A DNA stretch of 64,000 bases. Origin: Thermoanaerobaculia bacterium (lineage in GTDB: Bacteria; Acidobacteriota; Thermoanaerobaculia; Gp7-AA8). Both the position numbers and the translations under genes were made by a program. Of the stretch, positions 40,698-44,828 are shown in pieces (position 1 is the stretch's first letter; the number at the start of each line of letters is the position of its first letter). The notes under the pieces were generated by a model. The model was not told the DNA's origin and ran no database searches. It saw only the letters and a list, made by a program, of their open reading frames with translations. Location: assembly GCA_035688915.1 (NCBI GenBank), contig DASSMK010000346.1, positions 25,389 through 89,388 on the forward strand, written 5' to 3'.

Positions 40698-41543
40698 TCA
40701 CTTCCAAACCGACGGAACTCCCAGCATCACGCTCTGGCCGATCCGAAGCTCGCGTTTGTCGAACTGATCTCGCGTCCATACGGGCTGGTTGTATGTCCGC
40801 TGCGGATCGATCCTGTACAGGGCGAGGCCAACCTCGTGGCTCGGCGCCTCCGACGGGTTAGTCCTGTAGCGCTTCTCCACGGGGAAGCAAAAGTACGCCG
40901 GTTGCAGTCGCGAGATCTGCTCCGCGCTCGTATCGAACTGATCGAGCAACGACACCTGACGCGGTTTCGTGTCCTGCACCGGAATCCACTCTCGCTCTTC
41001 GGGCGGCACCGCGTGCACGTAGCAAACGTAGTGGTGGCGATACGCGGGCGTTGACGGCAGATGATCCGCGACGCCGCTCTCACTGTGTGACTTGATCGCC
41101 GGAACGAGCAGCAACGGCGCGGCCCGCGAGAGCGGCCAAGTTGCGTTATCGGTGAGCTGGTTGTAAAAGTGCGCGTCCGCGTGCGCCGGCGCTTCGTGCA
41201 ACTGGTAGGCGTCGTAGTGGAGCGACTTTCGGGCATCCCGAATCTCCTTGCCGTTCTTCTGCACCGGATTCGCGAGGTACGGGATCTCCGCGACGGTTTC
41301 CGGCCACGAAGGCCCGCCCGGCAGCCGGAGGTCGATGGCTCGCGGTGGCGCGATCGTGCCGTGATCGACCGACCAGAATTTGAAGTGTTCGATGACGTCG
41401 GGCACAGGCGGCGGGTTGGGAGTACGGGTGGTCGCGGTGATCGGCGTCGTCGTCGTGCCGGTGTCCGGTGCGGGCTCGGAACTTTTCGCGCACGCAATGC
41501 TCAGGGACAGAAGCATTGGGAGAACCGCGCAGGCCTTCGTCAT
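40698..41543 (-). CDS. lipoprotein of unknown function
   Basis: Signal peptide with the lipobox MTKACAVLPMLLSLSIAC, followed by a Thr/Pro-rich linker. Confidence 0.6.
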   Translation of the reverse strand: MTKACAVLPMLLSLSIACAKSSEPAPDTGTTTTPITATTRTPNPPPVPDVIEHFKFWSVDHGTIAPPRAIDLRLPGGPSWPETVAEIPYLANPVQKNGKEIRDARKSLHYDAYQLHEAPAHADAHFYNQLTDNATWPLSRAAPLLLVPAIKSHSESGVADHLPSTPAYRHHYVCYVHAVPPEEREWIPVQDTKPRQVSLLDQFDTSAEQISRLQPAYFCFPVEKRYRTNPSEAPSHEVGLALYRIDPQRTYNQPVWTRDQFDKRELRIGQSVMLGVPSVWK

Positions 41544-41650
41544 CGAGTGACTCCTTCCGCTATCGATTGGAGTGACGCGAACCCAAAGTTTCCTACCTCA
41601 GGCGAGCATCCTGTTCGCCCGATGTCGTATGACGCCTACGTGCGTAATCG

Positions 41651-42646
41651 TTACGGTTTGCTCTCGTAGATCGTCACCTTGATCGTGTCGGTCGTCGTGG
41701 GGTACTGCGACGGCGCGAGATTGATCGTGAGGAACAACGGCCCTGCCGCTGGGACGCTGACCACCGCGAACGAGCCCACCGCAAAAATTCCGGACTCGTC
41801 TCCCTTGGGGATGGTCGCGGTGCTTCCGCCGATTCGTCCGATGAGCGCGCCGATGGGCGCGACGTTGCTGAGAGGATCGAGCTTCAGCTTATTTGCGACG
41901 GCGCCGTCCGGCCCGCACTTCACTCCGTCGGCGTACTCCCATTTTTCCGTGGCTTCCAGCTTCAAAACAGTGTTCAGCGGCACGTAGTCAAGGACCTTCG
42001 TCCAGATCGCCGCCGGTTTCGCCGGGATCTCCACCGTCTCGCCCACCTTGATCCAACCCTTCTGATCCATGACGTCCCCTCCGGCATCGGTTCTTATAGC
42101 GACGATAGCTTTCTCGTCGATGGCAGCGGCGACCTCCGGCCTCACACGCACGAGCGCTGCACATGGTCCGGCGCTGGTGCAGGTCACGGCGAGGATGCGC
42201 ACACGCGGGGCAATGATGGCGCCGGACGAGACCACGTCGACGTACGTGCCGGCGTCGACGAGGCCAGCCGGCAACGCGGCGGGCAGCGCAACGGGAACGA
42301 CGGTCCGTCCGTCGTCCTGACGAGCGATCACGGGGTCGGTGCGCAGCGTGGACGCTACGATGTACTGATTTGCCGCGATGGCAGCTCTGGTGTACTTGCC
42401 AGTGAGCGTCGTGCGCGGAGGCAACTGCTGCGCTCGCGCCGTGCCATTAACTCCCCGTGGCGTCGCCAGATCGGCTTCGACGATGCGATGGTTGCACGGC
42501 AGCGGGCGCGTCGCGACGTAGTGCACCGGCTTCGAATCCACCGAGGCGTAATTCCACGCACTGATGCCCAACGAGATCACGGCATAACAAGCCGTAATCC
42601 AGAGAGCGATCTTCGTTGCCTTGGCCTTCACAGCGTTCGTGCTCAA
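41651..42646 (-). CDS. membrane-anchored protein (single N-terminal TM, extracytoplasmic domain)
   Basis: ORF 41651..42946. The start is proposed at TTG/GTG near 42646-42631 because upstream codons overlap the preceding gene. The TM segment is KIALWITACYAVISLGISAW. Confidence 0.45.
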   Translation of the reverse strand: MSTNAVKAKATKIALWITACYAVISLGISAWNYASVDSKPVHYVATRPLPCNHRIVEADLATPRGVNGTARAQQLPPRTTLTGKYTRAAIAANQYIVASTLRTDPVIARQDDGRTVVPVALPAALPAGLVDAGTYVDVVSSGAIIAPRVRILAVTCTSAGPCAALVRVRPEVAAAIDEKAIVAIRTDAGGDVMDQKGWIKVGETVEIPAKPAAIWTKVLDYVPLNTVLKLEATEKWEYADGVKCGPDGAVANKLKLDPLSNVAPIGALIGRIGGSTATIPKGDESGIFAVGSFAVVSVPAAGPLFLTINLAPSQYPTTTDTIKVTIYESKP

Positions 42647-43866
42647 GGTGGCGCCTTGTGTTCGTACGGCAGCGTGAGCTCCTCTCCGTACGCATTGTGC
42701 AGCGCCACCGTTTCCCAAGTCCGCCGCTCGCTCGAAGGCCCCTCGGGCAGCGGTAGGTGGAGGCCCTTTAGGACTTCGAAGCGGTAGAGGTCTACCGATG
42801 CGCGCAATAGATCGGTGAACGAGCGATAGCTCGCCACGACCAGTCGGTACAGGGCCCAGCTGACGAGCGGCCCGGCTAGGGCGACGAGGAGGAACGTGGC
42901 GGACGAGCGCACAATGAAGGCGAGGACAAACCACCACGCGACCCACGTCACACCGGTGAGCCAGAACAGCGCGATGAGCGAGTCGAGTTCCGCCTTCGCG
43001 CCGAGGACGGTCTGGTAGAACGGCTGCCCCTGCATGGCGTGCTGCAGGCGCGTCCAGAGCAGATCCATGTTGAAGCCGTAGCGGCGCTGCGCGTAGCTCG
43101 AGACAGCACGCATCATGTTCCCTGGTGCGGTCGGTTCGACGATCTGATCGCCGAATTCGGCTTGGCGGCGCAGGTGCGCGGCGATGACATCATCCACGGC
43201 GCGGCTCGTCGCATAGGTGACGAGATGCTCGCCAAGGTCCACGGCATCTGTATCGAGCCGGACAGCGTGGGCACTGTTCGGAAGGTCGGCGTTGTTGGTC
43301 TCGAGGACTTTCGATAGCTCGGCGGCGGCGTCGGTCAGATCCTTCGCGCTGATGAGCTGGTCCTGTTCGCGCTTATGTCGAAGGTCGATGATCTCCTTGA
43401 TGCTCTGGCCGTAGACGCAGACCGTCGCAAAGTTTGTTCTTCCTTTTCCGCGCGCTTTGTTCAAGCCGTTGTCGAGCGAGGACTCGAGCTCACGCAGCTC
43501 ACGGCGGAATTCCGTCGCCTTGGTGACCTGCGTCTCGATTGCGTCGAGCTCCGCGCGCTGCAACGGCGCGATCTTGCGACACAGCCACGCTGGCCATAAC
43601 CCTTCGATCAAGCGCCGAAGAAACAAGGCGATTGTCGACAGAAAGAACGCACCGACGGCGATAGCGAAGACGAGCACCGAGCCGCTCATGAGCGTCTCGA
43701 CAGTCGCCGACGGCGCCCGCGTCGCGAGCCACGCACGGAACCCCGGCGAGGTGTGATGGAGCAACGCGAGGTTGAGAAAGACCGTGACGAGAATCGGATA
43801 GAACGCGCCCAGAAGCATGTGCTTCGAAAAGAGCGTCTCCAGCTTCTCCAGAACAGTGCTGAGCAT
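42643..43866 (-). CDS. polytopic membrane protein of unknown function
   Basis: Several hydrophobic helices: LLGAFYPILVTVFLNLALL, VLVFAIAVGAFFLSTIALFL, LIALFWLTGVTWVAWWFVLAFIV and FLLVALAGPLVSWALYRLVV. Confidence 0.55.
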   Translation of the reverse strand: MLSTVLEKLETLFSKHMLLGAFYPILVTVFLNLALLHHTSPGFRAWLATRAPSATVETLMSGSVLVFAIAVGAFFLSTIALFLRRLIEGLWPAWLCRKIAPLQRAELDAIETQVTKATEFRRELRELESSLDNGLNKARGKGRTNFATVCVYGQSIKEIIDLRHKREQDQLISAKDLTDAAAELSKVLETNNADLPNSAHAVRLDTDAVDLGEHLVTYATSRAVDDVIAAHLRRQAEFGDQIVEPTAPGNMMRAVSSYAQRRYGFNMDLLWTRLQHAMQGQPFYQTVLGAKAELDSLIALFWLTGVTWVAWWFVLAFIVRSSATFLLVALAGPLVSWALYRLVVASYRSFTDLLRASVDLYRFEVLKGLHLPLPEGPSSERRTWETVALHNAYGEELTLPYEHKAPP

Positions 43867-43872
43867 GTGGTT

Positions 43873-44325
43873 CTATCCGGCGCAGTCGAAGCGGGATTCG
43901 CAGCGCGCGCATACCTCGCCGTGCTCGTCGTGCGCTTTCGGATGTCTCCTAGGCCCGCGGCAGCGGCACATCGAAGGCGGCTCGGTCAGGCCGCGTGATT
44001 TCGCTGCTGAGCGGAAGACGATCCGCGCCTCGGTCCCGTTCGCACTGACTCCCACCAGCGCCGCTTTAGGCTGCGGCAGCGTACGCATGCCGAACTTCCT
44101 CGCTCCCGCTGAGCGCATGCCGACGCGCACGTGCGTGACGTGTGCAATCGTCTCTTCCCCGGCTACGATGCTCCGTACCACGTCCCGCGCACGAACGACG
44201 AACGGAGCGCCCTTGTCGAAGTAGACCACGCCCGAGCGGCCGCTCTTCTGCATCCGCTCCCATGCCCGGCGCGGCGACTCCGTCGCATCGACGATGGGCA
44301 GCTCGACGAGATGTCTGTTCATCAC
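43873..44325 (-). CDS. small protein with a CBS-like N-terminal domain and a C-terminal Cys/His cluster
   Basis: LVELPIVDATESPRRAWERMQKSGRSGVVYF...VVRARDVVRSI and a C-terminal CRCRGPRRHPKAHDEHGEVCARCESRFDC. Confidence 0.45.
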   Translation of the reverse strand: MMNRHLVELPIVDATESPRRAWERMQKSGRSGVVYFDKGAPFVVRARDVVRSIVAGEETIAHVTHVRVGMRSAGARKFGMRTLPQPKAALVGVSANGTEARIVFRSAAKSRGLTEPPSMCRCRGPRRHPKAHDEHGEVCARCESRFDCAG

Positions 44326-44828
44326 CAGCAGCGGATCGGATTGTTGTCGCGCGGACAGATCCCCGGATGCGGTTGACTGTATCCGTGGTGTCGCGGACCG
44401 GCGCAGTAGCAGTCCACCGGCTCGCCGTTCAAATCAGCCTCGTAGTCTTCGGAACGGGTGATGATGACCGCCGCTCCCACATCGAGGCGATGGAGTGCAT
44501 AGTCGTATGCGCTCGTGTCGAACACGTCCTGAAATCGCGTCCAGTCATACGGCATGACCATGCCGAGCCCTCCGCCGCTGCGTGTCCAGTCGTGACCACC
44601 GGTCCGCTCGACGCGGAACGGCTGGGCAACGGTGAGAGAGAGTTCCACGCCCTCGACGTCTGCGAGTGACGCGGCATTGGGCGCATCGAGTAAATCTCGA
44701 GCACGAACGAGACGGACCGAATAGCCGACCTTCGTAACCACGCCTGACCGCTGGGCGAGATGCATCACGGCGATCGCGACGCGCGGCGGCGTGTCGTGCG
44801 GCAACACCGGCAACGTGATTTCTTTCAT
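44322..44828 (-). CDS. small protein with a CBS-like N-terminal domain and a C-terminal Cys-rich tail; paralog of 43873..44325
   Basis: ITLPVLPHDTPPRVAIAVMHLAQRSGVVTKVGYSVRLVRARDLL and a C-terminal DCYCAGPRHHGYSQPHPGICPRDNNPIRCW. The stop overlaps the next start in ATGA. Confidence 0.45.
   Translation of the reverse strand: MKEITLPVLPHDTPPRVAIAVMHLAQRSGVVTKVGYSVRLVRARDLLDAPNAASLADVEGVELSLTVAQPFRVERTGGHDWTRSGGGLGMVMPYDWTRFQDVFDTSAYDYALHRLDVGAAVIITRSEDYEADLNGEPVDCYCAGPRHHGYSQPHPGICPRDNNPIRCW

Follow-up and report, generated by a model that had tools for sequence, protein, structure and literature searches.

A four-gene cassette of predicted CBS-fold, membrane and lectin-like proteins beside CHAT genes in an Acidobacteriota genome

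A stretch of 64,000 nucleotides from a Thermoanaerobaculia bacterium of the Acidobacteriota (GenBank assembly GCA_035688915.1, contig DASSMK010000346.1, positions 25,389 to 89,388; hereafter the window, meaning the whole stretch at its full length) carries five co-oriented minus-strand genes at 40698-44828, here labelled A to E, that lie divergent from a gene for a CHAT-domain STAND protein. A sequence-only reading had taken the five genes for a single operon of two CBS-like paralogs, two membrane proteins and a lipoprotein, and had connected this operon with the protease genes next to it. The locus raises the question of what the conserved unit is, and whether that unit acts together with the CHAT protein, by itself, or in housekeeping. 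All five open reading frames (ORFs) are indeed present, and the unit that recurs elsewhere is a four-gene cassette, A to D, at window positions 41644-44870 (3.2 kb), with E as a neighbouring lipoprotein gene. Our tentative reading is that A to D constitute a self-contained, envelope-spanning and mobile sensor/executor module with a probable role in conflict, either in defence or in regulated cell death.

Layout, conservation and mobility of the cassette

Gene A (44322-44828) encodes a cytoplasmic protein of 168 amino acids (aa) with a predicted CBS-pair fold and a Cys/His tail, and gene B (43873-44322) a 149-aa paralog that lacks the insert of A. These are followed by C (42643-43866), encoding a 407-aa membrane protein with four transmembrane (TM) segments, and by D (41651-42646), which starts at a TTG codon and encodes a bitopic protein of 331 aa. 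The last gene of the row, E (40698-41543), encodes a 281-aa lipoprotein with a DUF7450 domain. The stop codon of A (TGA) overlaps the start codon of B (ATG) in the sequence TGATG, B and C are separated by 6 nucleotides (nt), and the TTG start of D overlaps the TGA stop of C. Translational coupling, which had been claimed for the whole row, is thus consistent with the overlaps or the 6-nt gap that join A through D, and does not extend to E, which lies 107 nt downstream of D and has its own ribosome-binding site (GGAAGGAG).

Upstream of A, a leader of about 44 nt (44829-44872, minus strand) forms the 5' edge of the cassette and is common to two related loci, L001 and L003, where it is kept up to the point at which homology breaks (alignment, with blastn boundaries at 44870 and 44872). 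There is no obvious Shine-Dalgarno sequence in this leader ahead of the ATG of A, suggesting that the mRNA of A may be short or leaderless, and no sigma-70-like promoter is predicted for the same region. Within the A-E block neither a terminator nor a promoter is predicted. The intergenic region between D and E contains no terminator-like site, so that read-through from D into E is possible, and its RNA folds no better than shuffled sequence.

For the comparison with other genomes, hidden Markov models (HMMs) of three families (that of A and B, here called the CBS/Zn family, that of C and that of D) were run on all the related loci that had been retrieved. The order of CBS/Zn gene or genes, C and D, with overlapping or near-abutting genes, is found in 16 independent intact loci, and D is present in all 12 of the loci that extend past C. 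These loci belong to two phyla, being Acidobacteriota metagenome-assembled genomes and a Caballeronia megaplasmid. It could be argued that the five genes are merely adjacent and have no functional link, given that A, B and C fall in no annotated family and that E is indeed unlinked. This is hardly credible, and for A to D it is contradicted by the order and tight coupling kept in 16 independent loci across two phyla.

Two forms of the cassette can be distinguished. The two-copy form, with two CBS/Zn paralogs and a fused D, is that of the window and of L001, L003, L005, L010 and L011. The one-copy form (L007, L012, L015, L019, L025, L030 and the Caballeronia locus L031) has a single CBS/Zn gene, sometimes together with a 113-aa tail-only protein, and a D encoded by two genes, one for the TM-SAF part and one for the LecA-like part. 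A scan of genomes and metagenomes with a narrower alignment found only three genome loci and 12 metagenome loci, so that the taxonomic range of the cassette is under-sampled.

The edges of the cassette are sharp. The closest relative (L003/L004) shares 87% DNA identity over 3227 nt, from window position 44870 to 41644; the homology runs from 42 nt upstream of A to 7 nt past the stop codon of D, and nothing aligns beyond. In L001 homology begins at window position 44872. What these closest relatives have in common with the window, at 82-89% protein identity, is the cassette only, and in the related loci there is no relative of E, of either CHAT protein of the window, or of a 238-aa ORF that follows one of the CHAT genes. 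The flanks include TIR and NHL genes in L003, a C25 giant protein and proteases in L005, a NACHT gene about 4 kb away in L007, Tc toxins and an ISL3 element in L009, a PIN toxin-antitoxin pair in L010, and IS66, IS110 and an integrase in L015. With unlike flanks everywhere and sharp edges, the cassette is therefore self-contained and mobile, and since homology breaks at its edge, it moves independently of the CHAT gene.

The distribution of the cassette is patchy and rich in singletons. A complete one-copy cassette was found by tblastn of C against plasmids on the 1.8-Mb megaplasmids of Caballeronia sp. SBC1 and SBC2. Decayed copies that keep the gene order occur in L009 and in L013, L027 and L028. 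In the first of these (L009, 8925-10747) the CBS/Zn genes are fragmentary and C is split, with an ISL3 transposase and Tc-toxin genes adjoining. All that is left in the others (L028, 6064-6474, equivalent to L013 and L027) is a tail fragment of 52 aa and one of 79 aa that resembles the N-terminus of C.

The fifth gene is a different matter. The lipobox of E, LSIA|C (sequence MTKACAVLPMLLSLSIA|C), was read directly from the sequence and fits the pattern [LVI][ASTVI][GAS]C. It is followed by a Thr/Pro-rich linker and a C-terminal DUF7450 domain (PF24247), which scores 60.4 bits against a gathering cut-off of 27, with residues 195-277 aligned to profile positions 71-151 of 151; a literature search did not find a published description of DUF7450. 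No homolog of E was found in the related cassette loci or in PLSDB plasmids. The five-gene operon thus reduces to the conserved genes A to D, and E, having no counterpart elsewhere, is a neighbour specific to the window and not a component of the cassette.

Predicted folds and domains of the four proteins

A and B are paralogs, as had been proposed; they align colinearly from end to end with 25% identity (BLASTP, E = 7e-6), and B matches the family HMM at E = 2.8e-32. The CBS-like domain assigned to them survives at the level of fold, and as a CBS pair in place of a single domain. Structure prediction combined with a fold search gives A a tandem β-α-β-β-α fold, a full CBS pair, over about 91 aligned residues, and the CBS structures that it matches include many transporter regulatory modules, the membrane proteins concerned being OpuCA, CorB/CorC/CNNM and MgtE. 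The domain is not detected by sequence profile. Neither A nor B has a Pfam or NCBIfam match at E<=1, so that no CBS profile (PF00571) finds it, an outcome that the sequence-only reading had named as one half of what would speak against it. In a search of PDB sequences with the family profile, CBS proteins appear only at E values of 0.41-1.7. Among 153 family representatives, the motif of the second CBS repeat, A-x-h-h-T-R-[HS]-E, keeps its T in 97, its R in 85 and its E in 95, and that of the first, L-h-x-A-G-D-I, keeps its D in only 49. The canonical ribose-phosphate-binding motif of CBS domains is G-h-h-T/S-x-x-D at β3-α2, of which the motif of the second repeat is reminiscent in sequence.

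Both proteins end in the Cys/His-rich tails that had been pointed out from the sequence. In A, where a disordered insert occupies residues 67-106, the tail residues are C140, C142, H147, H148, C158 and C167. The tail is the most conserved part of the CBS/Zn family, with a near-universal triad of C142 (in 151 of the 153 representatives), H148 (138) and C158 (148), and with variable positions at C140 (90), C161 (60) and C167 (85). The tails look like metal sites, and the pattern of conservation fits a small putative site in which three ligands are constant and the fourth changes position.

The size of the family is apparent only in an exhaustive HMMER search. Word-seeded searches returned two proteins with A as the query and six with the A/B alignment, whereas the exhaustive search with a small family profile and a threshold of E<=1e-3 returned 529 representative clusters, which consist almost entirely of stand-alone proteins of 140-215 aa. 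Ten of the clusters were looked up, and all ten are metagenomic, with one or two members each. An apparent GroEL fusion of 617 aa (P0034) was dismissed as a likely mis-called gene. In several one-copy loci (L015, 8371-8712; also L016-L018 and L023) a 113-aa protein is encoded between the CBS/Zn gene and C; only its tail motif matches (profile positions 124-162, E = 2e-9), and by its sequence it looks like a truncated second paralog.

The topologies that had been called from the sequence, namely polytopic for C, single-pass for D and a lipoprotein for E, hold in a simple hydropathy scan and by the lipobox. C has four hydrophobic segments in a 2+2 arrangement, with about 210 polar cytoplasmic residues between the two TM pairs that include a confidently predicted coiled-coil hairpin. 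Conserved motifs lie after TM2 (RLIEG.WP), before TM3 (PT..GN..RA..Y..RYG....W.RLQ) and after TM4 (DLLRA.VDLYR..L..L.LPLP.GP). The protein has no match in Pfam, NCBIfam, PADLOC or PHROGs and no similarity to transporter families; a fold search returned generic coiled coils only, and a search of PDB sequences was uninformative.

D begins with a Lys-rich cytoplasmic stretch and a single anchor near the N-terminus. In the periplasm these are followed by an SAF region like that of CpaB and FlgA, then by a β region that contains an invariant pair of Cys residues, and at the C-terminus by a LecA-like β-sandwich. The invariant Cys pair fits a periplasmic location. The matches to the SAF region span residues ~43-141 and are all below threshold, both in Pfam (SAF at 18.4 bits with a cut-off of 21; ChapFlgA at 21.1 bits) and in NCBIfam (CpaB, TIGR03177, at 19.8 bits with a cut-off of 71; flgA, TIGR03170, at 22.7 with a cut-off of 54.65). 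For the C-terminal domain, the profile of D homologs matches LecA among PDB sequences (1l7l_A, E = 1.7e-4), with profile positions 224-322 (99 columns) aligned to LecA residues 24-116 of 121. The two share the motifs G-P-(D/Q)-G and GAL(I/V)-x-(K/R)-IG-x-S, and opposite the LecA segment ND-VPGT-YGNN, D has N-x-xP-x-yP-x-t. The PA-IL family of Pfam does not match D at E<=1.

The SAF region raises the possibility that the cassette is the inner-membrane part of a pilus or secretion apparatus related to Tad or type II secretion systems, in which D would be a CpaB/RcpC-type ring and E a pilotin-like lipoprotein. The weak CpaB, FlgA and SAF matches of D would fit such a role, as would a giant Secretin_N protein encoded directly upstream of the cassette in two sub-lineages with a single CBS/Zn gene. 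We regard this as very unlikely, as all of the CpaB and SAF scores are under curated cut-offs, and no locus contains an ATPase, a platform protein (GspF/TadB), a pilin, a prepilin peptidase or a secretin C-domain; moreover, most loci, the window among them, lack the giant protein, and E is not conserved. The giant protein itself is secreted, 1317 or 1442 aa long and co-directional with the cassette (L015, 3378-7331; L020, 1213-5541; also L016-L019 and L023). Its two versions are 58% identical over the last 255 residues, and both carry a signal peptide, the only domain recognised in either being a single Secretin_N; a search of PDB sequences with the giant protein was uninformative. The next gene downstream is a small ORF (72 or 141 aa).

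CHAT and caspase-family proteases beside C-like genes

In the window, the cassette is flanked by CHAT genes on both sides. The gene divergent from A (45020-48946, plus strand), as had been described, is separated from it by 191 bp, and encodes a 1308-aa CHAT-NACHT-TPR protein of the STAND type, with a Pfam CHAT match of 88.1 bits, weak NACHT, AAA_22 and NB-ARC matches, and multiple TPRs. On the other side, a gene at 36581-39862 (plus strand) encodes a 1093-aa helical-repeat protein with a C-terminal CHAT domain (Pfam, 141.4 bits). This protein also shows a weak resemblance to Csx29, a type III-E TPR-CHAT protein, which is far under threshold (NCBIfam, 45.8 bits with a cut-off of 300). It is followed after 11 nt by an ORF of 238 aa with no family match (39874-40590, plus strand), and this ORF and the 1093-aa protein may be a protease-substrate pair.

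A link to proteases is seen in the wider family of C. Homologs exist that lack the coiled-coil insert and keep the conserved motifs, such as one from Rhodococcus that matches window C by BLASTP at E = 9e-14. With the Rhodococcus homolog as query, 38 plasmid records were retrieved (Streptomyces, Ralstonia, Embleya, Nostoc and Rhodococcus). Among ten annotated plasmid loci from Actinomycetota and Cyanobacteriota (L032-L041), the C-like gene adjoins a CHAT or caspase-family gene in eight, and is directly preceded by a small gene of 119-184 aa in nine. The protease gene is co-directional in L032, L033, L034 and L037, and also in L039, where a single C-like gene of 487 aa has no preceding small gene and the gap is about 0.5 kb. 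In L036 and L038, both Streptomyces plasmids, the layout is divergent as in the window, with the CHAT gene facing the small gene and the C-like gene, and in L035 the protease gene is about 1.5 kb from the C-like gene. The remaining two, L040 and L041, have no protease gene nearby. In L032 and L033 the CHAT domains are C-terminal.

Five of the six small partners that were aligned (L032-L037) end in a Cys/His-rich, Zn-ribbon-like tail, the clearest of which reads Y.CP.GD..WYR....VP.CPTH; the L035 protein is Cys-free. Comparison of the small partners with the CBS/Zn family by hhalign was not significant (probability 0.5%), and for this reason the resemblance is an analogy only. The C-like proteins, which have four TM segments, have no Pfam match. 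In L040 (4227-5747, a Streptomyces sp. NBC_00829 plasmid) a TerD-family gene precedes the C-like gene, and the flanks carry a transposase, a group II intron and recombinases. Ralstonia accounts for 19 of the 38 plasmid records, the C-like protein being kept on Ralstonia megaplasmids. For instance, in the megaplasmid of Ralstonia solanacearum, a plant pathogen that has been studied in detail (L042, 3912-7626), a C-like protein of 392 aa is encoded between a Cys-free ORF of 152 aa and an ORF of 764 aa, neither of which has a Pfam match, and there is no recognisable neighbour.

These loci bear on the explanation put forward from sequence alone, of an envelope-associated accessory or effector system next to protease-STAND genes. 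Spelled out for this genome, the cassette would be a membrane accessory of the CHAT-NACHT-TPR protein, either sensor or effector, and the protease would be activated by the membrane module or would cleave it, by analogy with gasdermin-protease or EACC1-caspase pairs. The divergent layout over a common intergenic region of 191 bp and the second CHAT gene on the other side would fit such a partnership, as would the identical layout in L036 and L038 and the protease genes beside short C-like genes in eight of ten loci. However, a CHAT gene is found in none of the seven related contexts of the cassette whose flanking sequence extends to 4 kb or more, and the closest relatives have the cassette alone, with homology ending 42 nt upstream of A. 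In addition, the CHAT-linked homologs of C have no coiled-coil insert and are accompanied neither by CBS proteins nor by D, and chance juxtaposition of unrelated systems is to be reckoned with in defence islands. The protease link is thus real for the wider C family and unproven for the cassette. The CHAT-NACHT-TPR protein is a possible functional partner of the cassette, and the partnership as formulated seems to us quite improbable.

By its gene content the window looks like a defence island. A cluster at 14895-21307, which we take to be an SspABCD-like DNA phosphorothioation system from its domain content, comprises minus-strand genes for a class-V aminotransferase/cysteine desulfurase (20015-21307), a DUF4007 protein (19122-20018), a 1176-aa AAA_16 protein (15703-19233) and a PAPS_reduct protein (14895-15827). 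Next come genes for a protein of 783 aa with two domains of the HATPase_c type (12528-14879) and for one of 653 aa without a family match (region 10640-14879). Also on the minus strand are genes for an 857-aa NB-ARC+TPR STAND protein (6380-8953), a 1235-aa protein with an Mrr_cat nuclease domain and AAA_22/AAA_16 (26497-30204), and an 829-aa AAA_16 protein (50708-53197). A block at 30000-36100, with a G+C content of 0.69-0.72 against about 0.63-0.65 around it, contains an ORF with a RepB_primase domain (30685-31527, minus strand) and several long ORFs without a Pfam match, and may be the remnant of a plasmid or integrative element. There is no tRNA gene anywhere in the window, so that none marks a boundary of the island.

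A working model and its relation to known systems

The model starts from gene structure, the paralogy of A and B, predicted folds, synteny, cassette mobility and the family-level association with proteases, which rest on observation or computation. From these we infer physical interactions, ligands, a direction of signalling and an output, as follows. A and B would most likely pair as a CBS heterodimer (as a homodimer in one-copy loci), and this dimer would be a ligand-sensing regulatory subunit that reads a small cytoplasmic ligand and docks on the cytoplasmic coiled coil and juxtamembrane motifs of C. C would be the constant core and the probable output of the module, acting as a channel, a permeabiliser or a transducer. 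D would be anchored beside C, with its SAF region and LecA-like β-sandwich in the periplasm, where it would probably bind an envelope or foreign glycan. A role in conflict is proposed because short members of the C family repeatedly pair with CHAT or caspase proteases in other phyla, a pairing which hints that bacterial conflict systems have a membrane arm not described so far.

Several points weigh against such a role. None of B, C and D (nor E) has a match in PADLOC at E<=1 or in PHROGs, and A has none in PADLOC at E<=1 and a single insignificant one in PHROGs (phrog_5288, of unknown function, E = 0.34). There is no recognisable enzymatic effector in the cassette, no CHAT gene in the seven related contexts described above, and no match to C or to the CBS/Zn family in IMG/VR viral contigs. 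The residues by which LecA binds Ca2+ and galactose appear to be replaced in D, judging from the alignment as read by eye. Furthermore, the Caballeronia copy is embedded among plain metabolic and transport genes.

Some of the same observations would suit a housekeeping or niche-adaptive device, whether a CBS-gated channel, a transporter or a system of envelope homeostasis, in which A and B would sense adenine nucleotides, Mg2+ or the like and gate C after the manner of MgtE, CorC/CNNM, ClC and OpuC, and D would tether the complex to envelope polysaccharide. The fold matches of A to OpuCA, CorB/CorC and MgtE regulatory modules point this way, as does the lack of matches to defence models and viral contigs, and a housekeeping role is entertained because the Caballeronia copy sits among metabolic genes. 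However, C has only four TM segments and no similarity to transporter families, and the patchy, singleton-rich spread, the sharp mobile edges, the insertion sequences or integrase flanking some loci and the decayed copies would not be expected of such a device, nor would the linkage of C-family homologs with CHAT and caspase genes or the position of the window copy in a defence island. A housekeeping device therefore seems doubtful to us, and a mobile sensor/executor module is the reading retained here.

A broader and more speculative proposal, which we would not call likely, concerns the C family as a whole. It may represent an undescribed class of integral-membrane executors or sensors of CHAT conflict systems, helical and unrelated to gasdermins, that act with a small partner. 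In Acidobacteriota and Caballeronia the system would have been rewired to work independently of a protease, triggered by a CBS/Zn protein that reads a ligand in the cytoplasm and a SAF-lectin protein that reads a glycan at the surface, and the window would hold a rewired cassette that has come back beside a CHAT-STAND gene. If the module is what its synteny suggests, a membrane output would have been wired in a new way to three kinds of input, namely a CBS sensor in the cytoplasm, a lectin-like one in the periplasm, or a protease of the caspase-like type. The membrane partners of CHAT and caspase proteases, so far gasdermins and EACC1, would then gain a further kind in the C family, with a bearing on the execution of regulated cell death in multicellular-type bacteria such as Streptomyces and Nostoc.

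Experimental handles are provided by the 3.2-kb cassette with sharp edges in the cultivable Caballeronia sp. SBC1, and by plasmids of Streptomyces and Rhodococcus on which CHAT-linked versions of two or three genes are found; CHAT-linked versions occur, for example, in Streptomyces clavifer NBC_00558, Rhodococcus opacus VOC-14 and Nostoc sp. C052. The locus also offers a caution about method: the predicted CBS fold is missed by every sequence profile, some 530 clusters of CBS/Zn-tail proteins being invisible to current profile libraries, and what had appeared as a five-gene operon is a four-gene mobile unit with a neighbour. The cassette, the CBS/Zn-tail family and the C family did not appear in any library that was searched, and a literature search found no paper on them. 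The folds are known already, namely a CBS pair with a metal tail (Ta0289), SAF and LecA, as is a CBS sensor on a membrane protein.

The nearest precedent for A and B by architecture is the Ta0289/PF1953 type, in which CBS domains are fused to a Zn ribbon-like domain (PDB 2qh1 and 3ghd; Proudfoot et al. 2008, as cited in PMC7521041). The A/B family is not assigned to this archaeal type. There is no sequence relationship, the family profile missing these proteins among PDB sequences at E<=10, and the Ta0289 type has a four-Cys, rubredoxin-like pair of knuckles, whereas the core of the A/B tail is Cys...His...Cys with a variable fourth ligand. Proteins of the Ta0289 type are not known to be coupled to a membrane protein. 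The theme of a cytoplasmic CBS sensor on a membrane protein is shared with OpuCA, MgtE, CorC/CNNM and ClC, with a predicted CBS-pair fold that is alike. In those systems, however, a recognised transporter contains the CBS pair or is fused with it, whereas A and B are separate products coupled to a four-TM protein without similarity to transporters.

For D, the combination of an anchor and a periplasmic SAF-like region is also that of CpaB/RcpC of the Tad pilus and of FlgA, but D scores far under the cut-offs, no tad or flagellar genes are found in any locus, and a LecA-like domain is present at the C-terminus instead. The ~100 C-terminal residues of D match LecA (PA-IL of Pseudomonas aeruginosa, 1l7l) over almost its full length. 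LecA is a soluble tetrameric lectin, whereas the domain of D is tethered to the membrane, or is a separate small protein in other loci.

With respect to the C family, the closest described analogue found is the two-gene EACC1-caspase system, mainly of actinobacteria, in which a 5' gene for the membrane protein EACC1 is followed by a 3' gene with an N-terminal caspase domain, and in which activation of the protease by EACC1, acting as a sensor in the membrane, has been proposed (Kaur et al. 2020, PMC7159879). Short C-like homologs are likewise small membrane-protein genes beside a protease of the caspase superfamily. As described in that source, EACC1 is a single-TM protein, whereas the C family has four TM segments and no Pfam match and is not placed with it, and the cassette of the window adds CBS/Zn proteins and a periplasmic lectin-like protein, usually without a protease. 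Bacterial gasdermin-protease systems also pair a membrane-acting protein with the gene for a CHAT or caspase-like protease, as the C family does; there, the membrane-acting partner is a gasdermin with a soluble, β-rich fold, whereas C is an integral, all-helical membrane protein.

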